Part shown: piece by piece, positions 1,711 to 51,345 of the stretch
Numbering within the stretch: position 1 is the stretch's first letter
Layout of the letters: each line of letters starts with the position of its first letter
NCBI GenBank assembly: GCA_016192545.1
Contig: JACPTX010000053.1
Coordinates: 1,129 to 65,128 of the forward strand
Length of the DNA: 64,000 bases
Origin: Candidatus Omnitrophota bacterium
Lineage (GTDB): Bacteria > Omnitrophota > Gorgyraeia > Aquiviventales > Aquiviventaceae
Reading direction: 5' to 3'
Position numbers and translations under genes: made by a program
Notes under the pieces: model-generated
Databases searched by the model: none
The model's input: only the letters and a program-made list of their open reading frames with translations
Told to the model about the DNA's origin: nothing

Positions 1711-2185
1711 CGTAGTGCCACCCGGTGTCGGCCAGCGTCAGGGCGAGGGCCTCTTTGTCCCGCACGCCGGCCTCCACGACTTCGCCGATGACGACCGCGT
1801 GGTCGCCCGCCTGATTGGCGATCTCGCGCACCTCGCACTCGACGTGCGCGATGGCCTCTTCGAGAATCGGGGCGCCGGTCTTGCCGAGACGGTGCGGGAC
1901 GCCGGTCAGCTTCTCTCCGGAGGTTGTGGCGGGCTTGACGAAGTGTTCGGCGACAGGCTTCTGCTGCTTGCCGAGGATGTTGATGGAGAACACGCGGCTG
2001 GCCTGGATCATGGCGAGGGAATGGCTGTCCTTGCGGATGCCGACGGCGACGAGCGGCGGGGTGAACGAGGCCTGGTTGAGCCACGTCGCGGTGAAGGCGT
2101 TGAGCCGGCCGTTCTGGTGCGTGCCGACGATGAACACGCCGTGCGGGATCTTGCGCAGGGCGATTTTTTTGGCTTCAAGGTCCAT
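1703..2185 (-). CDS. Flavin reductase-like (FMN-binding split-barrel) protein
   Basis: 160-aa ORF. HGVFIVGT...NAFTATWLNQASFTPPLVAVGI...HVECEV pattern is typical of flavin reductase domain proteins. Confidence 0.8.
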   Translation of the reverse strand: MDLEAKKIALRKIPHGVFIVGTHQNGRLNAFTATWLNQASFTPPLVAVGIRKDSHSLAMIQASRVFSINILGKQQKPVAEHFVKPATTSGEKLTGVPHRLGKTGAPILEEAIAHVECEVREIANQAGDHAVVIGEVVEAGVRDKEALALTLADTGWHYGG

Positions 2186-2188
2186 GGC

Positions 2189-2893
2189 TCAGCCGATGTG
2201 CGAGGCCAGGAACGCCAGCGTTCGCTGCCAGGCGTCCCGCGCCTCCTGCGGCCGGTACACGTCGGGCCGCGTGTCATTGAAGAACGCGTGGGGGCAGTCA
2301 GGGTAGATTTTCACCTCGCCGGGGCGGCCGAACTGCTTCAGGCCCTCGGCCAGCCGCTCGGCCTCCCGCTTGACGATCCACGCGTCCTGCCCGCCGTGAA
2401 TATAGAGAATGGGCGCCACGAGGTACTTGAGGCTGTCCGTCGGAGGAATCTGCCCGTAGAACGGGATGGCCGCCTTGATGTCCGAGTTGTGGGCGGCCAT
2501 CATCAGCGCGAACGTCCCGCCGATGGAGAAGCCCACGACGCCGAGCCTGATCGGATCCACGAACGGCTGCCGCGTGAGATAGCGCGTGGCGGCGTTGAGG
2601 TCCGTGAGGACCTGCTGGGACTTGAGGCCCTCCATCAGCTTCGCGGCCTCGGTGGGATCGTTGGTGACCTTACGGCCCACCCGCGAGTAGAGATCCGGCG
2701 CGAGCGCCGCGTAGCCTTCGCGGGCGAAGCGCTGGGCGACGTCTTTGATGTGGCCGTTCAGCCCCCACCATTCATGAATGATGAGCACCGCAGGCCCGGG
2801 CTTCGCCGCCTCCGGGCGCGCCAGGAAGGCGCGCAGCGCGGCTTCCCCGGCGGGGATCGTCACGTCGCTGGTGAGCAGCTCGGCCACCGGCAT
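2189..2893 (-). CDS. Dienelactone hydrolase family protein
   Basis: 234-aa ORF with LIIHEWWGLNGHIKDVAQRFAREGYAALAPDLY, GVVGFSIGG and HGGQDAWI...CPHAF, the DLH alpha/beta-hydrolase signature. Confidence 0.85.
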   Translation of the reverse strand: MPVAELLTSDVTIPAGEAALRAFLARPEAAKPGPAVLIIHEWWGLNGHIKDVAQRFAREGYAALAPDLYSRVGRKVTNDPTEAAKLMEGLKSQQVLTDLNAATRYLTRQPFVDPIRLGVVGFSIGGTFALMMAAHNSDIKAAIPFYGQIPPTDSLKYLVAPILYIHGGQDAWIVKREAERLAEGLKQFGRPGEVKIYPDCPHAFFNDTRPDVYRPQEARDAWQRTLAFLASHIG

Positions 2894-3493
2894 CTAGCCC
2901 CCGATGTCCTTGAGGATCTCGTCGAACGGTTTGGCGACGCAGGTGAAGATGGGCGTATCACGCTGGGTGTAGCGGCGCGCCTTGCTCTCGCGCATCTCCA
3001 TCACGAGATCGAGGAAATCCTGCGGCCGGTCCGACTCGAAGGCCAGCACGAACTCCGGATCGTCCAGGCCGAAGGCGTACGTCGTGTGGATCCTCACCGA
3101 CGGGTACTTGTTGCCCAGCACGATGTGCTCGTCCATCATCGCCTGCCGCTGCTCGAAGGGGAGCGCGTACCACTCCGGCGTCTTCACGAACGGGTAGACG
3201 AACAGGTATTTGCTGTGGAACGGCGTGATGAACCGCCGCTTGTCCGGGTGGTCCGGATCGAGCTTGTCCACGTAGATCGAACGCTTCGTCATGGACAGGT
3301 ACGAGTGGGGCATGGAGAGGTAGCCGGCCATCGCGGTCTGCCGGACCGCCGCGGACATCTCCTGCAACTGCTCCAGGGACTGCCCCACCCGCCAGATGAG
3401 GAAATCCACATCGGCCTTGAGGCCGACGAGCGAGTAGGTCAGCACCATCACGGTGGCGGGTGTGGGTTGAACGGCGACGCCCTCACGTGCCAT
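2894..3493 (-). CDS. Chlorite dismutase family protein (short Cld/HemQ-like)
   Basis: C-terminal KYLFVYPFVKTPEWYALPFEQRQAMMDEH...HTTYAFGLDDPEFVLAFESDRPQDFLDLVMEMRESKARRY matches the Cld/HemQ fold. Start moved to internal ATG 3493 (MAREGV...), which forms a TGATG junction with the upstream gene. The 315-aa track ORF has an implausible Pro/Arg/Gly-rich extension. Confidence 0.7.
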   Translation of the reverse strand: MAREGVAVQPTPATVMVLTYSLVGLKADVDFLIWRVGQSLEQLQEMSAAVRQTAMAGYLSMPHSYLSMTKRSIYVDKLDPDHPDKRRFITPFHSKYLFVYPFVKTPEWYALPFEQRQAMMDEHIVLGNKYPSVRIHTTYAFGLDDPEFVLAFESDRPQDFLDLVMEMRESKARRYTQRDTPIFTCVAKPFDEILKDIGG

Positions 3494-5100
3494 CAGATGA
3501 GCCGGCGGTAGTCTTCGACGTCCAGCTTCCAGACCGGGACGCCGCAGAAGCGGTCGCCTTCCGGGCAGTAGGGCGCGACCTTCGCCTGGGAACGCAGCGT
3601 GCATGGGGCGCCGAGATACCGGCCGATGTCCGGAAAGCGCTCCGCCACCTGCAGGACCTCCTCGCGGCAGGTGTTCCAGATTTCCTCCTGCGCGGTGTAG
3701 CACAGCCGCTGGACCCATTTGTGGTGGAAGTGCAGCAGGTCGCCGGATTCCTCGAAGCGGATCGGGAAGGCGTTGGGCAGCAGGTAGAGCGCGAATTCCA
3801 TCGGCGTGTCCAGCTCCAGCAGGCGGCGGATCGCCTCCCACGTCACGCGCATGAGCTCGTCGTAGCAGTCCCGCGCCGCCGGGGTGGCGGCGATCAGCGC
3901 CGGCACGAGGTAGTCCGGGCGGTCCGCCGTGAAATGGCTCGCCAGCACCGGGCGCGAGGCCGGCACCATCCGGTGGCGCTGGTCCTGCGAGTCGGCGGTG
4001 TGCGAGAGCTTCTTCTTGAAGGTGAAGTGGGGATGGACCATCGCGCGCGTGAGCTTGCTGACGGTCGTGAGCGTCAGCGTATCCGACAGGTACGGGTTGC
4101 TGGCGGGATTCAGCACCAGCCCGATGGCCTGGGAGTCGGAGAGCCCATCCTTCGGCAATCCCAGCACCGAGCGGACGGCCTGCGCCATCGTCGCCTGCCC
4201 CTGGACCTTGTAGTCCACGAGCTTCGAGGCGAGGCCCCCAAGCTCCTGGTCGAACTCGTCGAGGAACGCGCGCCCGGCCTGCCCCGCCCCGTTGCGGGCG
4301 GCGGTGCCGTTGCTCAGGGGCCGGTGCAGCATCTCGAAGGCCTGGTACTCCAGCGTGCGCTCAAGCGGGATCGGCTCCCCCGCCAGCTCCATGAACTGCG
4401 GGTCCACCCGGCGGACTTCCTCCACCATTTTCTGGACGACGAGGCGCTGCTCCAGCGGCGCGTCGAGCTCCTCGCACAGCCGCCAGTAGCGGTGCAGGGT
4501 GATGCCGCTGACGGTATGGTAGAGATGCGCGTGCGTCGCGACAGGCAGCGCGTAGCGCGCCACCTCCTGGCACCGTTTGTGAATGGAGCCCGCCCAGCGC
4601 TTCTCCGACGGATCCCTCGACGGGAACAGCCGGCGGTACTCCGCGGTCACCGCGGGCTCGACCAGCTCGATGAGGCGGTGGTACGCGCCCATCTGCAGGC
4701 GGACCGTCTCCAGGTAGACCGCGCGGGCCTCCTCGCCCAGCGGGGGCACGGTGACGTTGCCCGGCTTGACCTCGACAAAACGTTGGCTGACTTGTTCCGA
4801 ATTGTAAAAGGGATGACTATGCAGGAACGACCAGATGAACTGCCGCGAGACCCGCTCGAGCACGAACTGGAACGTGGGGTGCTGGATGGTCGTGTGGTGC
4901 CCGGCGCGGTAGATGCTCTCGGCGATGCGGTCGCGCTGGGCGCGGGCCTTCTCGTCCCGGTCCACGTCGGAGGCCGAGATGACCTGCGACGAATAGCAGG
5001 TCCTCGCCGTCGCAATCGAGAGATTGTACGGCTGCTGGAAGTAGTTCTCGAGCCGGACAATCGGCTCGGGCGTGATGGACAGCGAGGCGACGTCGGACAT
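3493..5100 (-). CDS. thyX: FAD-dependent thymidylate synthase, double-domain ThyX-like
   Basis: 535 aa. N half has ARTCYSS...AGHHTTIQHPTFQFVLERVSRQF...SEQVSQRF (degenerate ThyX motif). C half has SHTADSQDQRHRMVPAS (RHR motif). Length fits a pseudo-dimeric tandem ThyX. Confidence 0.6.
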   Translation of the reverse strand: MSDVASLSITPEPIVRLENYFQQPYNLSIATARTCYSSQVISASDVDRDEKARAQRDRIAESIYRAGHHTTIQHPTFQFVLERVSRQFIWSFLHSHPFYNSEQVSQRFVEVKPGNVTVPPLGEEARAVYLETVRLQMGAYHRLIELVEPAVTAEYRRLFPSRDPSEKRWAGSIHKRCQEVARYALPVATHAHLYHTVSGITLHRYWRLCEELDAPLEQRLVVQKMVEEVRRVDPQFMELAGEPIPLERTLEYQAFEMLHRPLSNGTAARNGAGQAGRAFLDEFDQELGGLASKLVDYKVQGQATMAQAVRSVLGLPKDGLSDSQAIGLVLNPASNPYLSDTLTLTTVSKLTRAMVHPHFTFKKKLSHTADSQDQRHRMVPASRPVLASHFTADRPDYLVPALIAATPAARDCYDELMRVTWEAIRRLLELDTPMEFALYLLPNAFPIRFEESGDLLHFHHKWVQRLCYTAQEEIWNTCREEVLQVAERFPDIGRYLGAPCTLRSQAKVAPYCPEGDRFCGVPVWKLDVEDYRRLI

Positions 5101-5135
5101 CGTGGAGGGTTGGGGGTATCTTATGACGCGGGGCG

Positions 5136-6260
5136 TCAGACTTCAAGCACTTTCGGCGCTTCGGTGAGGAGCCGATAACCGTCCCGGGTGACGACGGCCA
5201 TGTCCTCGATGCGCATGCCGCCGGCGTCGGCGTAGTAGAGGCCCGGCTCGACCGTCACCACCATCCCTGCGCGCAGCGTGTCAGGGCGCGGGTTGATGCG
5301 GGGCGGCTCGTGGATTTCCAGCCCCACGCCGTGGCCGGTGCCGTGGAAGAAACCCTGCATGCGCCCGTCCTGCTCGCCGGTCTGAAAGCCTAACGACTCG
5401 AAGTGTTCGAGGATCGCCTTGTGGATGGCGGAGCCGTCCACCCCGTCGCGGATCAATCGGTAGGCGATCTCCTGCCCTCCCTGCACCGCCTCGAACATCC
5501 GGCGGACCTTGTCGGACGCCTTCCCCTTCACGACGGTGCGGGTGATGTCGGCGAAATAGCGCGTCACGGCGTGCTGGGGAAACACGTCCATCACGATCGG
5601 CTCGTGCGCGCGCAGGGGCCCCGAGCCTTCGTTGTGGGGGTCCACCGCCTGCAGGCCCGGCGCCACGATGGTGTGCTGGCCCACGCAGTCGCGCTCCATC
5701 ATCTGCAGGTGGAGGACCTTGCGGATGAACTCGACGGTGAGCGGCTTGCCGCCGATGCGCAGCGTCCCGTCCGGCAGGATCTCCGAATTGCGGATCAGCT
5801 CGATCGCGCACGCCAGCGCCTCCTCGGTCGCGCGCAGGGTCCGGGTGATGGCCGCGATTTCCTCCTCGGACTTGATCAGGCGCTCCGGGTAGAACGGCTC
5901 GGGCTTGGCCGCGACCTCATAGCCCCGCTGGCGCAGCCCGTCGGCGTAATGGACGCTGAAGTCGAGCGGCACCTCGATGGCCTGCACGCCGTGGCCCTTG
6001 AGCACCTCGTCCACCACGTCCACGAACCCCGCCTCGGCGCCGAGCCGGCGCTTGGCCTGCGCCGCGAACTTCGCGTAAGACAGCACGTCGGTGACCGTGG
6101 CCTGCGCGCGGGCCCGGTCAATCTCCAGGTCGCTCATCACGAGGATCTTGCGGCCGTTAATCTGTATGAAGATGAAGGCGTCCGGCGCCAGGAACCGGGT
6201 CGCGTAATAGAGGTTGGCGTTCTTCTCGCTGTCCGCGATGATGAGGCGGGCGGTGCTCAT
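5136..6260 (-). CDS. M24 family Xaa-Pro aminopeptidase
   Basis: 374 aa with creatinase-like N domain and pita-bread C domain carrying metal ligands (DVFPQ...YFADITRT, HGTGHGVGLEIHE, VEPGLY, RIED). Confidence 0.85.
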   Translation of the reverse strand: MSTARLIIADSEKNANLYYATRFLAPDAFIFIQINGRKILVMSDLEIDRARAQATVTDVLSYAKFAAQAKRRLGAEAGFVDVVDEVLKGHGVQAIEVPLDFSVHYADGLRQRGYEVAAKPEPFYPERLIKSEEEIAAITRTLRATEEALACAIELIRNSEILPDGTLRIGGKPLTVEFIRKVLHLQMMERDCVGQHTIVAPGLQAVDPHNEGSGPLRAHEPIVMDVFPQHAVTRYFADITRTVVKGKASDKVRRMFEAVQGGQEIAYRLIRDGVDGSAIHKAILEHFESLGFQTGEQDGRMQGFFHGTGHGVGLEIHEPPRINPRPDTLRAGMVVTVEPGLYYADAGGMRIEDMAVVTRDGYRLLTEAPKVLEV

Positions 6261-6284
6261 GCTCGGGCACTCTGGTCGCGCATG

Positions 6285-8012
6285 TCAGAAATCGAACTGG
6301 AAGGTGACGTGGAACAGGTGGTTGGAATCGTCGGTGAGGGGATCATCGCCGACGTTGAAGCCCCACTCGACTTTCGCAGACAGGTGGTCGTCAACCTGCA
6401 ACTGGAAGCCGGTGCCGATCCCCGTGAGGTTGCGCGATTCGCGCTCCTCAGCGGTGATCGCCCGCAGGCGCCCGTAGCCGCGGTCCACGAATGCCAGGAG
6501 CCGCAATTGATCCCGCAGGCGGCCCTTGGCCAGCGGCAGCTTCCACGCCTCCGGCAGGAACCGGCACGGGACGTGGTACTCCGCGCGCGCGATAAACCCC
6601 ATATCCGCCAGGTAGTCCCCTTCCGGATAGCCGCGCACTGAGCCTGACCCGCCGAGGTACAGCTCCTCCTGCGGGGTGAGCTTGGACGGCGAGAGCTGCG
6701 TCTCGACGCTGAGGACGGCCAGCGTCTGCCACGGCATCTTCTGGACGCGGCTCACCTGCATCCCGAACTTGAAGAAATCCGGATCCGCCCCGGGGCGGCT
6801 GGCGAGGAGGTTGTTCTCGCTCATCGCCCCAAGCGCCTTGAGCCCGAACGCATACTCGTTCGTCACCGACCACCGCCCCCATTGGTCGTTCACCTGGAAC
6901 CGCGGCTCGATCCGCAGGACGCGCAGCCGGTCGCGGCGGCTGACGTCGGCCTGCACCATGGTGCGGCTCTCCTTGAAGTCGAGCCCGGCCTGCGCCTCAA
7001 GCGACCAGCGCTCCTTTTCGAAGATTGATTGGATGACCGCCACGGTGTAGGTGTTGGACGTCCCATGCACGCCGAAGGGCTTGAACTGCCGCTTGGGCGA
7101 GGCCTGGGAGTGGGTGTACTGGAACATGAGCGTCGTGCCGTAGGGGCTCACCGGCACCGCGTAGTTCGTGTAGACCGCGCCGAATTCCTTCCCGAAGACC
7201 GTGCCGAGGATAAAGCGGTCATCGAAGCCGAGCAGGTTGTTGTGGCGGACCGACGCCCCGTAGCGGAAGCGTCCGATCGGCTTGGTGCCTTGCCGGTCCC
7301 AGGAGCCGCCCGCATGCATGGGAAGCTTCTCCGTGACCTTCAGGATGACATCTGTCTGGCCGGTTTCCTTGCCGGCCCGCAGCGCGGCCTGCACCTGCCG
7401 GTCCGGGTGCTTGTTCATGCGGGCCAGGTGCTTGACCATGGCCTGGTAGCGGAGCACCTCGCCGGGCTTGGTGCGCCAGTACCACTTCACCAGGCTCGTG
7501 TGGAAGTAGCGGTTGCCCTCCACGATGACCTCGCCCAGCTTGCCCTCAACCACCTGGATCATCGCTCGGCCTTCCTCGATGCGCTGGGGCGGGACATAGG
7601 CGATGGTCGTCAGATACCCTTGCTTGCGGTACTCCTTCTCAATCTTGTCGGCCAGCGCGATCAAATCGCTGACGCCGATCTCATGGTCTTGGTACTCCGC
7701 AATCAGCGGCCTGAACGTCTTGTCCGGCAGCGTGGTGTTGCCTTCGATCTGGATTTCTTTGAGGACGAACCGGACCTCTGCAGGTGGGGCGGGTTTTTCG
7801 ACGCGCTCCGGCTCGCGATCGATCACGGGCGGGCGGTGGACCGGGCGCTCTTTCTCCTCGCGCTCCCGATGGATGCGCTCTTCGATCACGTCCGACTCCG
7901 AGGCGGGATCCCGCACGACCTGCGCCGCGGCTGTCCCGCCCCACGACAGGAGCAGCAGCGCGACCGCGCCGCAGCGGGATATAAGACGGCTTAACGTTGC
8001 TGAAGCATTCAT
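6285..8012 (-). CDS. TpsB outer-membrane transporter of two-partner secretion (ShlB/FhaC/HecB family)
   Basis: Signal peptide MNASATLSRLISRCGAVALLLLSWGGTAAAQ from internal ATG 8012. POTRA-like region (VRFVLKEIQIEGNTTL) followed by a beta-barrel ending in the OMP signature ...FHVTFQFDF. Divergent from a TPS-domain giant gene. Confidence 0.85.
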   Translation of the reverse strand: MNASATLSRLISRCGAVALLLLSWGGTAAAQVVRDPASESDVIEERIHREREEKERPVHRPPVIDREPERVEKPAPPAEVRFVLKEIQIEGNTTLPDKTFRPLIAEYQDHEIGVSDLIALADKIEKEYRKQGYLTTIAYVPPQRIEEGRAMIQVVEGKLGEVIVEGNRYFHTSLVKWYWRTKPGEVLRYQAMVKHLARMNKHPDRQVQAALRAGKETGQTDVILKVTEKLPMHAGGSWDRQGTKPIGRFRYGASVRHNNLLGFDDRFILGTVFGKEFGAVYTNYAVPVSPYGTTLMFQYTHSQASPKRQFKPFGVHGTSNTYTVAVIQSIFEKERWSLEAQAGLDFKESRTMVQADVSRRDRLRVLRIEPRFQVNDQWGRWSVTNEYAFGLKALGAMSENNLLASRPGADPDFFKFGMQVSRVQKMPWQTLAVLSVETQLSPSKLTPQEELYLGGSGSVRGYPEGDYLADMGFIARAEYHVPCRFLPEAWKLPLAKGRLRDQLRLLAFVDRGYGRLRAITAEERESRNLTGIGTGFQLQVDDHLSAKVEWGFNVGDDPLTDDSNHLFHVTFQFDF

Positions 8013-8025
8013 GGGGAAACCGTTG

Positions 8026-8054
8026 ACTATAACAAAAACACATGTCCGATGCAA
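8026..8054 (-). promoter_or_regulatory. Candidate promoter of tpsB (extended -10 TGtTATAGT)
   Basis: Minus strand reads ...TTGCAT-N17-TATAGT preceded by TG. The -10 ends 13 nt before ATG 8012, implying a very short leader. Same TGnTATAnT form as the nuoA and msbA-like promoters. Confidence 0.35.
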
Positions 8055-8117
8055 GCATTCATGCGGGTCATGCGAGTGCCCCGTGCATATTGGCCTGTCA
8101 GGTGTCAAAACTGCTAC

Positions 8118-8143
8118 TTTTACCAGACTACAGTCTGGTAAAA
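8118..8143. promoter_or_regulatory. Perfect 12-bp inverted repeat TTTTACCAGACT-AC-AGTCTGGTAAAA in the tpsB/tpsA divergent region
   Basis: Read directly from the sequence. Lies in AT-rich intergenic DNA between divergent TPS genes. Candidate operator or hairpin. Confidence 0.4.
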
Positions 8144-8178
8144 ATACAATGTAATGTCCTCATTTGGCGGGTGACGCG

Positions 8179-8304: not shown

Positions 8305-8400
8305 CTGGTTGTGCTGAAAAAGGCAAACTATCCGAAAGGGTAGGACGCAAAGCTACCGGTCCCGGTGCCAGGCACCGGCGATAGCGGGGCTGCCAGCGTA
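8305..8400 (+). promoter_or_regulatory. c-di-GMP-I (GEMM-I) riboswitch aptamer
   Basis: GGCAAACUAUCCGAAAGGGUAGGACGCAAAGCUACCGG...CCGGCGAUAGCGGGGCUGCCAGC aligns block by block with the V. cholerae Vc2 aptamer as recalled. Shared blocks are GGCAAAC, a GAAA-capped P2 hairpin, GACGCAAAGC, a P3 CCGG/CCGG stem and AGCGGGG. GCUG(8313-16)/CAGC(8394-97) can close P1. Confidence 0.85.
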
Positions 8401-28523: not shown

Positions 28524-30183
28524 TCACCGATTGGGGTCAGACCCCTTCCCTGAGGGGTCTGACCCCTTTTGAGGCAGCATCGCGCCCTGGTCGCCGAGGA
28601 CGTCGTAGCTGAGTCCCTTGAACGCCGCCTCATGCGAGGCGAGGCTGCCGAACACGCCCTGCGCGTCCCGGAATTCCCAGAGGAACCCGGTGCGGTCGGC
28701 CACATCCAGCAGCACGCGCCATTCGGGCTTGGCCTCCCCGAGCGGCTGGACCGCCTGCCGGATGCGCTGGACACGTCCCGCCTCGTTGGTGAAGGTACCG
28801 TCTTTTTCGGCATAGACCGCGCTGGGCAGAATCATGTGGGCAAGCTGGCAGGTCCGGTTGACGTTGGAGCCTTGAAAGACGAGCAGGTCGACGCTGTCCG
28901 CGATCGTCTTCGCCTGGGCCTCGCCCGCGAGCTCAACCAGATCGCCGCCGAAGACCCAGAGCAGCGAGAGCTCCTTCCGCGCGGCCCGCTCCAAGACCGC
29001 CTTGACGTCGAACGACAGGCCCATCGCCTGCGCCCCGCGGGTGTTGGGGGATTTGTCCGCCCGACGCAGGAAGTCATCCTGCGACCCCTGCCGCGCCGGC
29101 TGGACCGCGAGCGACCGGATCCCGAATCCGCCGAAGACGCGCTTGGCGACGTACAGGTCCTCATTGGTCAGGTGCGTCGAGAGGACGACGCCGGCGCGGT
29201 CGAGCTGCTGGGCGTCCTTCAGCCGGCGCAGGGTCTGCGTCAGCAGCCCGAGCGCCTCATCCCACGAGCCGGCGCGGTACCCCGAGCCGTCGCGGAGCTG
29301 CACCTGCGTCAGGCGGTTCTCGTCGATGAACTTGTAGCCGTAGCGGCCCTCGTCGCACATCCACCATTGGTTGACGTCGGGGTTGTAGCGAGGCTTCAAG
29401 CGCATGATGCGCCGGCCCTGCGCGATGTGAGGGCGCTGGCCGCGCTCGCGGTTGTCGTGGATCTCGATGTTGCAGCCCTTGGAGCAGCCTGGGCACACCG
29501 AGCTGGTCGAGCCCAGGTACCACACCCGGCACTTGAACCGGAAATCCTTATCGGTCAGCGCCCCCACCGGGCAGACATCCACCACGTTGCCCGCGTAGGG
29601 ATTGTCGAGCGGCTTGCCGGGGTGGATGCCGAGCTCCGAGTGGTCGCCCCGGTTGAAGATCCCCAGCTCCCCGGTCTTGGTGATCTCGTCGCAGAACCGC
29701 ACGCAGCGGGAGCAGAGGATGCAGCGCTCCATGTCGAGCATCACCGTCGGCCCGATGGACACCGCCTTGGCGGATTTCTTGACCTTCTGCTCGTCGAACT
29801 TCTGGTTGTAGAGCCCGTAGGCCATGTAGTAGTCCTGCAGCCAGCACTCGCCGGCCTGGTCGCACACCGGGCAGTCCAGCGGATGGTTGACGAGGAGGAA
29901 TTCCAGGACGTCCTGCCGGCCCTGCAGGACGTTGTCCGACGCCGTGCGCACGACCATGCCCTCGGCGGCCTGCGTGTAGCAGGCGATCTGCAGTTTAGGG
30001 GCTTTCTCGATTTCGACGAGGCAGATGCGGCAGTTGCCCGCGATCGACAACCCCGGATGATAGCAGTAGAACGGCACCGGGCTGTCCGCCTGCTCGCAGG
30101 CCTGCAGGACCGTGGTGCCCGGCGGCACGGTGACGGATTTCCCGTCGACGGTCAGGGTGACGGTCTTGACCGGCTCAGCCATG
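28524..30183 (-). CDS. nuoG: NADH-quinone oxidoreductase subunit G (short form)
   Basis: 553 aa from ATG 30183 (MAEPVKTVTLTVDGKSV...). Carries 2Fe-2S and 4Fe-4S Cys motifs (CYHPGLSIAGNCRICLVE, HPLDCPVCDQAGEC, CILCSRCVRFC). The last ~13 codons are repeat-encoded. Confidence 0.85.
28533..28566. repeat. Paired GGGGTCWGACCCC palindromic repeat (14-bp stem hairpin) at the nuoG/nuoH junction
   Basis: GGGGTCAGACCCCT-tccctg-AGGGGTCTGACCCC. The nuoG reading frame runs through it, giving the tail ...QKGSDPSGKGSDPNR. Confidence 0.9.
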
Positions 30184-33993: not shown

Positions 33994-34006
33994 GGGGTCA
34001 GACCCC
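33994..34006. repeat. Single GGGGTCAGACCCC repeat at the nuoB/nuoC junction
   Basis: The context caaaagaaGGGGTCAGACCCCtcaagaa is the same 27-mer found at 34968-34994. The nuoB stop codon abuts it. Confidence 0.85.
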
Positions 34007-34975: not shown

Positions 34976-35024
34976 GGGGTCAGACCCCTCAAGAACGACG
35001 GGTTAACCGACGGGGTCTGACCCC
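34976..35024. repeat. Paired GGGGTCWGACCCC repeats between the divergent nuoA and msbA-like promoters
   Basis: GGGGTCAGACCCC (34976-88) and GGGGTCTGACCCC (35012-24) in inverted orientation, separated by 23 nt. Confidence 0.85.
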
Positions 35025-42090: not shown

Positions 42091-42103
42091 GGGGTCAGAC
42101 CCC
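42091..42103. repeat. Single GGGGTCAGACCCC repeat between the DsrE-like and moeZ-like genes
   Basis: Read directly in a 29-nt intergenic gap. Confidence 0.85.
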
Positions 42104-42524: not shown

Positions 42525-42537
42525 GGGGTCTGACCCC
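42525..42537. repeat. Single GGGGTCTGACCCC repeat between the sulfite reductase and DsrE-like genes
   Basis: Fills most of the 17-nt intergenic gap. The ORF-track N-terminal extension MMGSDPS is repeat-derived. Confidence 0.85.
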
Positions 42538-47273: not shown

Positions 47274-48272
47274 ATGGACGCGTCCAGTCGGAGACTGCGC
47301 TCCGCGCTGCTCCTGTTGCTCGCGACCTTTCTCATCGGGGTGATCGGGTATCAGCGGATCGAGGGATGGAACACCTTCGATGCGCTCTACATGACGGTGA
47401 TCACCCTGGCGACGGTGGGATACGGCGAGACCCATCCCTTGAGCCCTGCCGGACGAACCTTCACGGTCTTCCTCATCATGCTGGGGGTCGGTGTCCTAAC
47501 CTACGGGGTGACGGCGGCCACCGCCTTTGTCGTGGAAGGGACCATGACGAATCTCATTGGGAGGAGAAAAATGGAAGCGGACATCAGCAAGCTGCGCGGG
47601 CACATCATCCTCTGCGGCGCGGGGGAGACCGGGCGCCACATCGCCGCAGAGCTGCTCAAGGCCCGCGTGCCGTTTGTGGTGATCGACAAGGACGGCGAGC
47701 GGCTCAAGGCGCTGGATGCGGCTGCGCACGTGCTCTTCATCGAAGGCGATGCCACCCAGGATGAGGTCCTGGCGCGCGCCCGGATCCAGGACGCGCGGGG
47801 GCTGATCAGCATCCTGCCGCAAGACCGGGATAACGTGTTCGTGGTGCTGACCGCGCGCGCCTTGAATCCCCGCCTGCGGATCATCTCGAAAGTCGTGGAG
47901 TTGGAGTCGCGGGCCAAGCTGGCCAAGGCCGGAGCCGACGCCACCGTCTCGTCGAATTTCATCGGCGCGATGCGCATGGCCTCGGAGATGATCCGCCCCG
48001 CCGTCGTGTCGTTCCTCGACACCATGCTGCGGGCCGACGGCGGGAACGTGCGGGTGGAAGAGGTCAGGCTCCCGACGGGCTCAGCCCTGGCGGGACGCAC
48101 GCTCCAGGACGCCAGGATCTACGAGCAGACAGGGCTGCTGGTGATCGCGACCAGCGATGGCCGGACCTATGAGGTCAATCCGAATCCCGCCCTCAGGCTC
48201 CAGGAGGGGAGTGGACTCATCGTCTGCTGCGCGCCTGAGCAGTTGGCGCGTCTTCGCGACCTCGTAAAGTAA
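47274..48272 (+). CDS. Two-TM potassium channel with RCK/TrkA-N domains
   Basis: Start at ATG 47274 (MDASSRRLRSALLLLLATF). Contains the TVGYGE selectivity filter, the Rossmann-like ILCGAGETGRHIA and a TrkA-C-like end. Confidence 0.85.
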   Translation: MDASSRRLRSALLLLLATFLIGVIGYQRIEGWNTFDALYMTVITLATVGYGETHPLSPAGRTFTVFLIMLGVGVLTYGVTAATAFVVEGTMTNLIGRRKMEADISKLRGHIILCGAGETGRHIAAELLKARVPFVVIDKDGERLKALDAAAHVLFIEGDATQDEVLARARIQDARGLISILPQDRDNVFVVLTARALNPRLRIISKVVELESRAKLAKAGADATVSSNFIGAMRMASEMIRPAVVSFLDTMLRADGGNVRVEEVRLPTGSALAGRTLQDARIYEQTGLLVIATSDGRTYEVNPNPALRLQEGSGLIVCCAPEQLARLRDLVK

Positions 48273-48301
48273 AGGGGTCAGACCCCTCACTTGAAGGGGT
48301 C
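48272..48301. repeat. GGGGTCAGACCCC repeat plus a left half-copy (AAGGGGTC) interrupted by the transposon
   Basis: aaGGGGTCAGACCCCtcacttgAAGGGGTC followed by the IS end. The other half (AAGGGGTCTGACCCCTT) resumes at 51329. Confidence 0.85.
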
Positions 48302-48398
48302 GGTAGTGCCTTAATTTGATTTAGGAACTCATACAATGTCTAATTATGTTCGTCGCCTTTTATTGTGTCTATTGAGGTGGTAAAATGCCCTCAGGTTC

Positions 48399-49163
48399 AT
48401 GTTTACTCCTAAAACAGATAGAATCAAAGAGGTGGCCAAATCCCAATCAAAGGTGATTGAGGAGCTAAAAATGCTCTTGGAGGGGCAAGTGCGTGTGTAC
48501 ATTGACTATGGAAACGCGCACAAATGGTCAAATCGCTTGGGGTGGCACATTGACCAGAAGAGGATTTATCAATTCCTTTCTTCATTTGACAACATAACCA
48601 ACATAGGATTGTACGATGGTACACTTCAAGGAGATGCTCGGTCGGAACAATCAATTAAGGATGCTGAGCAGCGTGGTTATCGAGTTAGAACGAAACCCGT
48701 TAAGATCATGCATATTTCAATCAATGCAAGCAGCATTAGTACCACGTCGCCTGATCTACTCAAAGAGTTCATCAGAATGGCATTATTACGAGAACTCGAT
48801 ATTAAAACTATTGAGTTCTTGAACGCGAGGCTAAAAGAATTGAATCAGAGGGGCGTATATTACGTTGAGGAACGGAAGTGCAACTTCGACGTGGAAATTG
48901 GATCGGACATGCTTCTTGATCTTGAGCGAGGAGGAACAGATTGCTTTGTGCTATGGAGCGGAGATAGTGATTTCCAGCATCCCATCAAAGAACTTTTACT
49001 AAAGAGTAAAAAGGTAATACTTTTTGCGACAGCTAGACGCGTTGCAACGGAATTGGATGAGTTGCGAAAAATAGGGCTGTTGATCTTTGATATTGCTAAG
49101 ATACGGGAATTTATCTGCTGGCCACGCGAACTCGCGGTGGGAAAAGCAAAGGGGACGCCCTAA
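48399..49163 (+). CDS. NYN-domain (LabA/DUF88-like) predicted ribonuclease
   Basis: 254 aa with VRVYIDYGNAH (N-terminal Asp), KCNFDVEIGSDML and CFVLWSGDSDFQHPIKELLLKSKKVILFA, the NYN/PIN-like acidic motif arrangement. Confidence 0.6.
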   Translation: MFTPKTDRIKEVAKSQSKVIEELKMLLEGQVRVYIDYGNAHKWSNRLGWHIDQKRIYQFLSSFDNITNIGLYDGTLQGDARSEQSIKDAEQRGYRVRTKPVKIMHISINASSISTTSPDLLKEFIRMALLRELDIKTIEFLNARLKELNQRGVYYVEERKCNFDVEIGSDMLLDLERGGTDCFVLWSGDSDFQHPIKELLLKSKKVILFATARRVATELDELRKIGLLIFDIAKIREFICWPRELAVGKAKGTP

Positions 49164-49181
49164 GGCGCCCCCAAGCTATCG

Positions 49182-49214
49182 ACTAGTGCAGCTTTTAGCT
49201 GCAAGACTAGTTTG
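49182..49214 (+). terminator. Hairpin terminator between the convergent NYN and transposase genes
   Basis: ACTAGTGCAGCT-ttt-AGCTGCAagACTAGT followed by TTTG. Confidence 0.5.
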
Positions 49215-49292
49215 CCTTAGTTTGGGTGTGTGTGTCAACAAAATTATGCGCTTAGTACGCCTTGAATAGGACTGCTATCTCCGTGCCTTCCA

Positions 49293-50108
49293 TTACGAGA
49301 CCCCCTGTTGTTTAAGTGCCCCACTCACCAATTCCTCCATCGTCCACAGATGGTCGGTCAGATCTGCGGCCATGGCCGGAGTCATTTTTAGCGTCCTATG
49401 CCATCGGCAGAAGTTATAGTAGCTGAAATATAGGTGCAGAGCCGCTAGATGATTCTCTGATTTCTTTGAGAACGCGCTTGTTTTACGCGCCAGTCGCCGC
49501 ACACTCATCCGCATCGTGAGATTGTTCCGCTCAACGTAGGACGTACTAATCTTCTCCACGTTGGGGTTGCCAGCGACCACCACTGGACGAGCGCCCACTA
49601 CTTCATCGCCGCGATATATTTTCATCAATTGTCCAAAATGGACTTCTGTGCCAAAGGCCAATTCTGCAGCGTCTCGGTAAGCCAGCAAACCATCCGTCGT
49701 AAGTTGAAACTCACCTACAAGTCGTCGCCGTAAATCCATCATGAGCCGGTAGGCTGAGGCCGTATCCCGGTGCCCCAAGATATAGCTAATTACCAGTTTA
49801 GTATCAGCATCTAACGCCACAAAGACCCACACTTCGCCTTTATAGCCGTTCATAACTGCGCCTATATGCTCAGGATCAGCCTCTTTTTTTCCGATGAATG
49901 ACCATAACTCATCGGCTTGGACGTACTTGGCCTGAATGTTTTGAATCTTGGCATCAAGGAGGCGGTGGCAGGAGTCGCCAGCCCGAACGAGCCAGGACAT
50001 AATCGTATTCTGATTCACGCCTGTCATGCGCTCTAAGGCGCGAATACTGTGCCCTTCTACGAGGCCACCGAGTATCGTTAGGACTTTCTCTTTTCTCAGC
50101 ACATACAT
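49293..50108 (-). CDS. IS1-family-like DDE transposase (single ORF)
   Basis: 271 aa with N-terminal HTH (HSIRALERMTGVNQNTIMSWL), ADELWSFIGKK, VFVALDADTK, LTTDGLLAYRDA and TSYVERNNLTMRMSVRRLARKTSAFSKK. These parallel IS1 InsB motifs ([39 protein letters not shown]) as recalled. Confidence 0.75.
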   Translation of the reverse strand: MYVLRKEKVLTILGGLVEGHSIRALERMTGVNQNTIMSWLVRAGDSCHRLLDAKIQNIQAKYVQADELWSFIGKKEADPEHIGAVMNGYKGEVWVFVALDADTKLVISYILGHRDTASAYRLMMDLRRRLVGEFQLTTDGLLAYRDAAELAFGTEVHFGQLMKIYRGDEVVGARPVVVAGNPNVEKISTSYVERNNLTMRMSVRRLARKTSAFSKKSENHLAALHLYFSYYNFCRWHRTLKMTPAMAADLTDHLWTMEELVSGALKQQGVS

Positions 50109-50146
50109 CTGTTATTTCACTTGATAAGATACGAGGCAAAAAAATA

Positions 50147-50344
50147 TCAGGGGATCACGCCTTTTGCCCTGAGAATAACCTGATACGCCTTAGATACTTT
50201 TGCCTTGCCATTTAGCCACCGATTAATTGTGGGCGGCGGTACCCCAATTTCAGAAGCTAGCTCGTACTGGCGCTTGTCGGTGCGTTCCAGGTATGCGCTG
50301 ATCTGACGTACCACTTCGTTGTTGATACCATTCGTCTTGTTCAT
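50147..50344 (-). CDS. Small helix-turn-helix protein (InsA-like or XRE-like regulator)
   Basis: 65 aa with QYELASEIGVPPPTINRWLNG, an HTH. Lies 38 nt upstream of the transposase. Confidence 0.6.
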   Translation of the reverse strand: MNKTNGINNEVVRQISAYLERTDKRQYELASEIGVPPPTINRWLNGKAKVSKAYQVILRAKGVIP

Positions 50345-50390
50345 GGCGTAAAGAGGATAACATATGAATTATCACTTGTCAATAGATATT

Positions 50391-51053
50391 TTACGAGGTT
50401 GGAGTTGGGGGTGAGACAAAAGTGTCCAAAAAGAGCTGTGGCGAGCAGGTAAACATGCCAATCTTCTGAAGATCCAACTTGCTCAGTTCTTTGTCCAAAA
50501 AATCATCGAGAGTTATAAAAACATTGCACTTGGCATCTAAGGCCGTGCCCACATGGATACAATCTGCGGCTTCAATATTTGTGTCGCGAGCCATTTCAAA
50601 TACTCGTTGCCAGCCATCGGGTTTCAGATCAACAAAGGTGATGAAATCCTTGTAGGTCAGTTCATACTCCTGATACAAGAGATTCCAGAGATCGGTTAGT
50701 TCTGTGGGTGTCAGGTCTCGTTTATGTCGATTGCTGTAAATCTGGTTAATCTGTATGCCCTGAGCTAACTTGTTATTGATGTACTTTGTCATCTGTACCT
50801 GGGTAAGTATTTCTAAGTAAGCTAACAATGATGAGACTGTTGGAATCTTTTGCGTCCTCAGGTAACGCAATACCTGACGAGAATCGGTGCGACGCTTGTA
50901 TAGATCATCAAGCAAAATATTAGTATCAACATACACGGTGAGGCTAGGAGTGGGTGCAAGGGTTGGTGCGGTTGTGAGGACTGGATTAGGATTTGTCTTT
51001 GCCGCCATCTTCTTTTGGAGGTTCTTTTGCTGGTGGCGTCTTTGGCGGGACAT
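50391..51053 (-). CDS. PIN-domain protein (VapC-like toxin candidate)
   Basis: Contains TVYVDTNILLDD (first acidic residue) and EAADCIHVGTALDAKCNVFITLDDF (C-terminal acidic residues). The start is ambiguous (ATG 51053 or 51008). Confidence 0.6.
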   Translation of the reverse strand: MSRQRRHQQKNLQKKMAAKTNPNPVLTTAPTLAPTPSLTVYVDTNILLDDLYKRRTDSRQVLRYLRTQKIPTVSSLLAYLEILTQVQMTKYINNKLAQGIQINQIYSNRHKRDLTPTELTDLWNLLYQEYELTYKDFITFVDLKPDGWQRVFEMARDTNIEAADCIHVGTALDAKCNVFITLDDFLDKELSKLDLQKIGMFTCSPQLFLDTFVSPPTPTS

Positions 51054-51261
51054 CTATTTTCACTTGCTCAACTGCATCTAAATCTGGTTTGGAGGATGGG
51101 TGCTTCTTAATGTGCTCAAGAAGCGCTTTTCGCAACTGCTCTTGGCGCTTTTTCTCAAGTTCCTGTAACTGCTCAGGAGTAGGCTCTTTGGGGGAGATGG
51201 GCATAGGAGGAATGTTCTTAGAGAGTCTATCGAGACTGACTGTAATGGTCAAGCGTAGCAT
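50986..51261 (-). CDS. Small Lys/Pro/Glu-rich protein upstream of the PIN gene (antitoxin candidate)
   Basis: Start at ATG 51261 (MLRLTITVSLDRLSK..., beta-strand-first as in RHH/AbrB-type antitoxins), preceded by GGAGGA 5 nt upstream. Overlaps the PIN ORF. Confidence 0.45.
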   Translation of the reverse strand: MLRLTITVSLDRLSKNIPPMPISPKEPTPEQLQELEKKRQEQLRKALLEHIKKHPSSKPDLDAVEQVKIDVPPKTPPAKEPPKEDGGKDKS

Positions 51262-51328
51262 TAGTCCTCCGTAGGGGTAACCACGCGTACCAGAGAAAAA
51301 CATCTAAAACTGAGATTCAGGCACTACC

Positions 51329-51345
51329 AAGGGGTCTGACCCCTT
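51329..51345. repeat. Right half of the interrupted palindromic repeat (AAGGGGTCTGACCCCTT)
   Basis: Joining 48272-48301 to 51337 onward reconstructs AAGGGGTCAGACCCCT-cacttga-AGGGGTCTGACCCCTT, a 16-bp-stem hairpin like the one at 28533-28566. Confidence 0.85.

Follow-up and report, generated by a model that had tools for sequence, protein, structure and literature searches.

A probable IS1-family transporter insertion sequence with predicted nuclease and toxin-antitoxin-like cargo in a REP-like hairpin of a Candidatus Omnitrophota genome

Introduction

Insertion sequences (ISs) of the IS1 family have, in the ISfinder definition, tips of the form GGnnnTG, and ISfinder also lists non-classical members of the family that are long or encode their transposase in a single open reading frame (ORF). 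Toxin-antitoxin modules are known to ride inside transposons, for example those of the Tn3 family. IS derivatives in which passenger genes lie between the inverted repeats are called transporter ISs (tIS) (PMC7986276, PMC9330008). Here, we report the analysis of a 3,027-bp block of low GC content in a 64-kb stretch of DNA (hereafter the window, in which all coordinates are given unless a relative is named) from a metagenome-assembled genome (MAG) labelled Candidatus Omnitrophica/Omnitrophota. The block is very probably a single-copy, horizontally acquired tIS of the IS1 family. It had been noticed in an earlier reading of the DNA (the original prediction) as an IS1-like cargo transposon inserted precisely into a palindromic hairpin.

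Targeting of repetitive extragenic palindromic (REP) sequences has been described for the IS3 (IS1397 and ISKpn1), IS110 (IS621, ISPpu9, ISPpu10 and ISPa11), IS4 (ISRm22), IS256 and IS5 families, and IS1 is not among these five (PMC1525189). For classical IS1 in Shigella, the reported REP association is 6/101 (PMC1525189). Below, the block is compared with these described systems with respect to its ends, its transposase, its cargo and its place of insertion.

Results

Boundaries and ends of the element

The block occupies positions 48302-51328 and is the sole low-GC island across the window, with a GC content of 0.43-0.51 compared with 0.60-0.69 in the flanks. It ends in terminal inverted repeats of 21 nt that are 81% complementary, the outermost 10 nt (GGTAGTGCCT) being identical, and the tip motif GGTAGTGCCTKAAT occurs twice in the window, at the two block ends. 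Exact copies of the octamer AAGGGGTC lie directly outside both ends.

48302..48322, + strand: terminal inverted repeat on the NYN side, distal to the transposase start, GGTAGTGCCTTAATTTGATTT
51308..51328, - strand: terminal inverted repeat on the transposase-upstream side, GGTAGTGCCTGAATCTCAGTT read inward
48294..48301, unstranded: 8-bp target-site duplication AAGGGGTC, left copy, which is the left half of REP unit 2
51329..51336, unstranded: 8-bp target-site duplication AAGGGGTC, right copy

Five ORFs, all of them intact, are contained in the block. The proteins were already in GenBank as MBI3088338-43, annotated gene by gene and not as an element, and the neighbours of the block encode a TrkA-type K+ channel, a LolA-like lipoprotein-sorting protein and an MMPL transporter. 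The block, its ends, the duplication and the hairpin described below were all found where the original prediction had placed them, and these features are non-random.

Insertion into a REP-like hairpin

The block interrupts a pair of inverted host repeats, members of a family with the core GGGGTCWGACCCC.

48272..48287, unstranded: REP-like unit 1, AAGGGGTCAGACCCCT, left hairpin arm, directly after the stop codon of the K+ channel gene
51330..51345, unstranded: REP-like unit 2, AGGGGTCTGACCCCTT, right hairpin arm, ~60 nt upstream of the LolA-like gene
28533-28566, 33994-34006, 34976-35024, 42091-42103 and 42525-42537: host REP-like GGGGTCWGACCCC family elsewhere in the window

The two flanking arms are 16 nt long and 100% complementary. 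When the block and one copy of the duplication are deleted, the sequence becomes AAGGGGTCAGACCCCT-cacttg-AAGGGGTCTGACCCCTT, which includes GTAAAGTAAAGGGGTCAGACCCCTCACTTGAAGGGGTCTGACCCCTTGCGCTG, and this reconstructed empty site is a hairpin with a stem of 16-17 bp that consists of two inverted GGGGTCWGACCCC units. It folds at -37.9 kcal/mol as RNA (z -6.5) and at -22.6 kcal/mol as DNA (z -6.6), with z ranging from -5.4 to -6.6 across folds, and none of 200 shuffled sequences folded as well. The arms, the duplication and the fold of the reconstructed site thus bear out precise insertion into a REP hairpin. The target was the centre of the second unit of the inverted pair, in the hairpin downstream of the K+ channel gene.

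The repeat family itself is strongly over-represented: the window contains 9 copies of GGGGTCWGACCCC, where 0.2 would be expected, and none of 100 shuffles reached this count. By a crude gene model, six of the nine units lie outside genes, and the REP units total ~153 nt, or ~2% of the ~7.1 kb of intergenic DNA in the window. Away from the insertion, two inverted pairs built in the same way are intact (28533/28554 and 34976/35012, stems of ~13-15 bp) and one unit stands alone, so that, with the reconstructed insertion site, the window holds three hairpin-forming inverted pairs. As a short GC-rich palindrome that is over-represented, mostly extragenic and in several cases arranged in inverted, hairpin-forming pairs, GGGGTCWGACCCC resembles the REP, bacterial interspersed mosaic element (BIME) and REPIN repeats, a comparison that here covers 64 kb. 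One A-type and one T-type REP unit bracket ~420 bp of normal GC content.

The octamer AAGGGGTC is part of the REP consensus and is also present at 48272, as would be expected if the 8-bp repeat were simply REP sequence flanking an islet that was integrated in another way, by REP-REP recombination or by a site-specific recombinase. We consider this explanation extremely improbable. Without the duplication, the pre-insertion site would be an orphan half-REP, whereas with it the site matches the intact pairs of the window; ten relatives of the element have 8-bp duplications of unrelated sequence directly outside inverted repeats of the same type; and no recombinase is found among the block ORFs. 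Transposition is the reading that we retain, and the exact AAGGGGTC duplication, taken together with the 8-bp duplications at the ten relatives, indicates an 8-bp staggered cut of the target. The transposase would act on the GGTAGTGCCT... terminal repeats and insert the element through such a cut.

A divergent IS1-family transposase

49293..50108, - strand: IS1-family DDE transposase, 271 aa, single ORF, MBI3088340.1, predicted catalytic residues D66, D139 and E193

Several lines of evidence connect this protein to IS1. It matches Pfam DDE_Tnp_IS1 (PF03400) with 45.9 bits (cut-off 24.1), and its top NCBIfam model is that of IS1 (NF033558, transpos_IS1; 74.9 bits, E 8e-21). In a BLASTP comparison with the InsAB' fusion, a reference that we assembled from an annotated E. 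coli IS1A copy, it shows 25% identity (E 6e-12) over an alignment that spans the helix-turn-helix (HTH) and the motifs DE-W, TDG and ERxNLxxR, and D66, D139 and E193 do not vary among nine aligned sequences, IS1 being one of them. The transposase has more than 7,700 homologues, and most of those with a source name are called IS1 family transposase; relatives from plasmids of the cultured bacteria Hoeflea, Mesorhizobium and Acidiphilium carry the RefSeq label "IS1 family transposase". The tips are GGTAGTG at both ends of the element and GGTGATG and GGTAATG in the E. coli IS1A copy, all of which fit GGnnnTG. The IS1 end quoted in the original prediction (GGTGATGC...TGATTTAG) was verified on the E. 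coli IS1A copy. Target duplications, for which the IS1-family criterion is 8-9 bp, measure 8 bp in the window element and in its ten relatives, as well as in the E. coli copy examined (GATTTTTG).

Other observations weigh against the assignment. The Pfam match spans the C-terminal part of the model only; the NCBIfam score of 74.9 bits does not reach the equivalog cut-off of 100; no Cys motif of a zinc finger appears in the aligned transposase; the InsAB'-type frameshift is lacking; and the HTH protein encoded upstream (see below) has no detectable similarity to InsA of IS1. Given the score below the NCBIfam cut-off and the partial Pfam coverage, we regard the transposase as a divergent member of IS1.

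This divergence raises the question of whether the transposase belongs instead to the sister family IS1595 or to another DDE family, the IS1-like ends being superficial. The second NCBIfam model is that of IS1595 (NF033547; 35.1 bits against a cut-off of 75, E 1.2e-8), followed by weaker matches to IS6 and IS481, and the IS1 score, as noted, falls under its curated cut-off. IS1595-family elements reportedly also generate 8-bp duplications and often carry passenger genes. However, the score for IS1 is 74.9 bits compared with 35.1 for IS1595; Pfam DDE_Tnp_IS1 is matched over threshold, whereas DDE_Tnp_IS1595 gives no match to the 271-aa protein at E <= 0.01; the alignment with InsAB' takes in the HTH and the three catalytic motifs, the ERxNLxxR signature among them; and both the source databases and RefSeq label the relatives as IS1 family. 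Membership in IS1595 or another DDE family is, on this evidence, very unlikely. Pfam, the best NCBIfam model, the InsAB' comparison, the tips and the 8-bp duplication agree on the IS1-like character that had been proposed, and the transposase does not belong to an unrelated family. The element is thus a member of the IS1 family, though not a classical IS1.

The comparison with the prototype, E. coli IS1A, makes this explicit. The two share an InsAB'-homologous DDE transposase, GGnnnTG tips and the 8-bp duplication. Unlike IS1A (0.77 kb) and the classical subgroup (~0.7-1.2 kb), the window element is 3.0 kb long; its transposase is encoded in one ORF, without a -1 frameshift and without an N-terminal zinc finger, and is longer by ~35 aa in the segment from the second D to the E and by ~40 aa at its C-terminus; and it contains a separate XRE-type HTH gene unrelated to InsA, plus three cargo genes.

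An InsAB'-type frameshift fusion of the HTH and transposase reading frames was considered and rejected: a TAA in the same frame precedes the transposase ATG by 6 nt, and the HTH protein does not resemble InsA. Seven consecutive T residues directly follow the stop codon of the HTH gene, between the two genes (50134-50146, - strand); they are unusable for a frameshift of this type because stop codons intervene.

A small HTH gene as the conserved partner of the transposase

50147..50344, - strand: 65-aa XRE-type HTH protein, MBI3088341.1, core gene, Pfam HTH_3
50354..50382, - strand: promoter-like site TTGACA-17-TATCCT with a TG extension, just upstream of the HTH-transposase pair, from a consensus scan only
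49151..49172, - strand: terminator-like GC hairpin with a T-rich tail, 3' of the transposase gene, from a consensus scan only

The HTH gene lies 38 nt upstream of the transposase gene. To place it, we examined the close relatives of the element among the fetched loci (labelled L0xx), defined as those whose transposase is at least 55% identical (L021, L026, L027 and L071-L075). All eight encode an XRE-type HTH protein of 57-66 aa, in a gene that precedes that of the transposase by a few tens of nucleotides. The HTH protein of the window element shares 65-67% identity with those of L021, L026 and L027, which is about the level of conservation of the transposases, and nucleotide homology between the window element and L072 is confined to the HTH-transposase module (71%). 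Its presence in all eight close relatives marks the HTH gene as core rather than cargo, hence the block holds three cargo ORFs. The original prediction had counted four passenger ORFs, among them this conserved partner of the transposase, and its count is corrected here.

Homology and conservation suggest a core module that consists of the 271-aa DDE transposase, with its N-terminal HTH, and the 65-aa XRE-type protein. The latter might serve as a regulator or an end-binding factor, in a role like that of InsA.

Predicted nuclease and toxin-antitoxin-like cargo

48399..49163, + strand: cargo gene 1, NYN/LabA-like predicted RNase, ORF of 254 aa, 236 aa in GenBank (MBI3088339.1)
50391..51053, - strand: cargo gene 2, PIN-domain protein, putative VapC-like toxin, ORF of 220 aa
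50986..51303, - strand: cargo gene 3, small ORF of 105 aa upstream of and overlapping the PIN gene, putative antitoxin

The domain matches of the first two proteins are established: NYN in Pfam (E 8.3e-13) with a weak match to the NYN defence-system model of PADLOC (E 1.5e-6), and PIN in Pfam with 30.3 bits (cut-off 23.6). The functions proposed for the cargo are predictions from sequence. The PIN gene likely starts at 51008, which gives a protein of 205 aa; this 205-aa call comes from locus L005. The notion that PIN variants segregate in the population was rejected, the 133-aa and 205-aa calls being gene-caller differences on identical DNA. The small ORF is annotated in GenBank as 72 aa with a start at 51204 (MBI3088343.1).

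Judging by the domains, the PIN gene and the small ORF probably form a VapBC-like toxin-antitoxin (addiction) module that would stabilise the element. A PIN gene behind a small ORF that overlaps it, both within a transposable element, recalls VapBC and other toxin-antitoxin modules in transposons. The point that speaks against such a module is that the small ORF has no match in Pfam, NCBIfam or PADLOC and no antitoxin signature; unlike in VapBC, the putative antitoxin here is without a recognisable antitoxin or DNA-binding domain.

Relatives and the transporter-IS class

With a script that demands an exact flanking direct repeat and matching inverted tips, complemented by inspection, we delineated ten relatives (coordinates within each locus).

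L021, 4763-6951: 2,189 bp, duplication CCGGCGGG
L034, 3510-7092: 3,583 bp, duplication CGTGCTCA
L035, 2639-5989: 3,351 bp, duplication GGAAAAAA
L036, 111-3014: 2,904 bp, duplication GATTTTTT
L037, 3506-7745: 4,240 bp, duplication CGCAGGCG
L069 (Hoeflea plasmid), 2052-6275: 4,224 bp, duplication GATGATTG
L070 (Acidiphilium plasmid), 2734-5367: 2,634 bp, duplication AAGCCGAG
L072, 143-2147: 2,005 bp, duplication TGACCCCC
L074, 50-3313: 3,264 bp, duplication TAGCCCAC
L027, about 3513-6849: about 3,300 bp, duplication CAAATCAG

The duplication is 8 bp long in 10/10 relatives. Together with the window element, these elements span 2.0-4.2 kb, each being two to five times as long as its transposase gene. 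Most relatives have tips of GGTAGTG or GGTACTG, and those of L074 and L027 are divergent (e.g., GGTAAGG and GGTCGTG).

The cargo differs from element to element. L021 carries a 169-aa ORF without a family match, and translations indicate RelE-like and HigA-like ORFs in L035 and a ParB-like ORF in L037. In two loci for which only one end was found, an MT-A70 methyltransferase and an HNH_2 nuclease lie inside the right end (L026, 1269-3287) and a RelA_SpoT small alarmone synthetase lies upstream of the HTH gene (L071, 37-813). A prephenate dehydratase is enclosed by inverted repeats and 8-bp duplications in both L027 (4163-5125) and L074 (654-1592), two elements with transposases that are 76% identical and dehydratases that are only 32% identical. 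L027 and L075 are both situated just upstream of a pyrR-like gene (75% identity between the two loci). A domesticated transposase in pheA-pyrR synteny, considered for L027, L074 and L075, was rejected once the ends and 8-bp duplications had been found; the dehydratase is cargo.

The shared ends, the 8-bp duplications and the differing cargo of the eleven elements identify the window block as a tIS, a known kind of element. Like other tIS, it has one IS-type transposase and short terminal inverted repeats that enclose passenger genes, with a duplication of the target outside them; unlike those with resistance or regulatory genes, it has nuclease and toxin-antitoxin-like cargo, and nothing essential differs. 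Ten relatives with ends of the same type, 8-bp duplications and variable cargo uphold the proposal that such elements act as vehicles for accessory genes, and show that the pattern of inverted repeats and duplications recurs at other elements.

Several further observations concern the surroundings of the relatives. Genes in or beside the related elements L026, L071, L073 and L070 are often of the defence or addiction type: in L073, the ends of which were not delineated, BrnT/BrnA follows closely downstream of the transposase (5005-5510), and in L070 a RES/Xre pair abuts the right end of the element (5350-6188). L021, the closest relative (transposase 82% identical), directly adjoins an IS256-family (Transposase_mut) gene (6952-8160), and in L025 (about 2510-3835), the closest relative in another sample, the right end is broken by an IS4/IS5-type (DDE_Tnp_1) element; these surroundings look like a local pile-up of insertion sequences.

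In a distant clade, with transposases 42-47% identical, a conserved small basic protein is encoded by the first gene inside the left end (L035 2686-2925, L036 179-445, L037 3571-3825, L069 2318-2554 and, more weakly, L034 3587-3901). It has the C-terminal motif ...KGG..GG..R....T..QR..IA..AA.ARW, is absent from the window element, and may be a second core gene of that clade. In three unrelated contigs (L032 ~1087, L033 ~1869, L062 ~5938), GTCAA is found exactly 20 nt outside the right terminal repeat, which could be chance or a spaced target feature.

Is there a preference for REP hairpins?

The original prediction went further, suggesting that REP-type hairpins are insertion targets in this genome. 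An observation in favour of this proposal comes from L072, which derives from a different metagenome assembly, has a transposase that is 74% identical, and differs in cargo, flanking genes and duplication. Its insertion site, AGGGGTCAGACCCCT-tctctcgatt-GGGGTC[TGACCCCC], likewise falls into an inverted pair built from the same REP motif, again in the second unit; the empty site folds as a hairpin (z -5.5), and in mirrored palindrome coordinates its duplication is offset from that of the window by 1 nt. The flanks of L072 have 65.6% GC, like the host of the window element. Among all fetched loci, the REP motif was seen in these two hosts only, so that in hosts showing it 2/2 insertions are in the motif, 1 nt apart. 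A rough chance estimate, in which the first case is treated as post hoc, gives p ~0.02 for the L072 replicate, or ~0.006 with the positional match.

Against a general preference stand the nine other family insertions, which are neither in REPs nor in strong hairpins. Seven relative empty sites that were folded have z from -2.4 to +0.95, no better than shuffles, and a family-wide hairpin preference was rejected for these seven sites; the eleven duplications have no consensus; and the case for REPs consists of two insertions. REP targeting is not a family-wide rule. Given that the other hosts lack the REP motif in the fetched flanks, however, their sites do not test the preference in REP-bearing hosts.

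It is quite conceivable, with a probability that we put a little short of even, that the element is an IS1-family tIS whose position in a REP hairpin reflects chance and survivorship at harmless sites, with no preference of the clade. This explanation would account for the location of 9/11 family insertions outside REPs and strong hairpins and for their duplications without consensus; the L036 insertion, which to the eye falls within the T-run of a terminator-like sequence, agrees with selection for neutral sites between genes. Classical IS1 in Shigella is REP-associated in only 6/101 (PMC1525189), and the first case was chosen post hoc by the original prediction. It fares less well with the independent L072 insertion, in the same motif, in the second unit of the pair and 1 nt from the mirrored position, with the small share of REP units in the crude intergenic space (~2%, whence the replicate p of ~0.02 or ~0.006), and with the lack of this motif in the fetched flanks of the other hosts.

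Weighing these points, we lean slightly towards the view that, in hosts with REPs, the close clade has a preference that is structural or tied to REPs rather than a strict sequence specificity. The narrower proposal, that the clade with the single-ORF transposase and the XRE-type HTH partner preferentially hits the centre of the REP palindrome, within 1 nt, in GGGGTCWGACCCC-bearing hosts, is tentative, and we rate its chances as somewhat below half. Such a preference would be for a REP-associated structure or a REP-bound host factor. The idea of REP hairpins as targets has tentative support: it gains from L072, which lies in the same motif 1 nt off, and loses from the nine insertions elsewhere. 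The window element and L072 resemble the known REP-targeting ISs in their insertion within a host REP palindrome at a reproducible position (two cases, 1 nt apart); unlike those ISs, which have all or most copies in REPs, the wider family is found elsewhere.

State of the element in its host

The element is present in one intact copy and has a foreign composition. The exact transposase was found in 11 contigs, all of the same locus and from one series of sequencing runs, and the nine that were compared show 0 differences. With respect to mobility, two negative results count against the element: there was no second copy among the 11 contigs with the exact transposase, and no empty site emerged when the transposase, K+ channel and LolA-like proteins were looked up by exact match. 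These look-ups yielded nothing but the filled locus and contigs that are broken at the REP, the latter being uninformative, and no contig was found in which the K+ channel gene is directly followed by the LolA-like gene. A contig scan with the LolA-like protein gave only a match of 24% identity and no orthologous locus, and junction-pattern scans of a viral collection found nothing.

The block might accordingly be an immobile relic that was acquired once, became fixed and is inactive, its persistence being explained by the passenger genes. A single copy that is identical in every compared contig, with 0 differences over at least ten sequencing runs, the lack of an empty site in the look-ups with the K+ channel and LolA-like proteins, and terminal repeats only 81% matched beyond the first 10 nt are what a relic would be expected to show. 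On the other hand, no ORF is disrupted and the catalytic residues have been kept, the two copies of the duplication match exactly, as do the outermost 10 nt of the two ends, and the GC contrast (45-50% against 65%) argues for recent arrival; as for the imperfect repeats, those of E. coli IS1A are imperfect, too (GGTGATG compared with GGTAATG). On balance, we judge the relic unlikely.

Elsewhere in the window

The only Rfam match in the window is a c-di-GMP-I-GGC riboswitch aptamer (RF03167) at 8313-8398 on the + strand (E 7e-14), which at 67.7 bits exceeds the gathering score of 59. A search for tRNA genes in the 64 kb found none.

Conclusions

The original prediction holds in its essentials, and the element is of an ordinary kind. 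The additions of this work are the recognition of the HTH gene as part of the core and a position-specific REP insertion seen twice, a modestly novel lead. Exact boundaries, core genes and cargo are now set for an element that GenBank annotates as separate genes (MBI3088339-43). More broadly, a large and widespread clade of proteins called "IS1 family transposase" corresponds to cargo-carrying elements of 2-4 kb, with payloads that vary among nucleases, toxin-antitoxin pairs, a methyltransferase/HNH pair and prephenate dehydratase.

Should the REP preference fail, the window element would be an ordinary insertion. If it is true, IS1 would become the sixth IS family that targets REPs, the preference would explain how such elements reach harmless landing sites in compact genomes, and the clade would offer a simple two-protein system in which a small HTH protein might choose the target.

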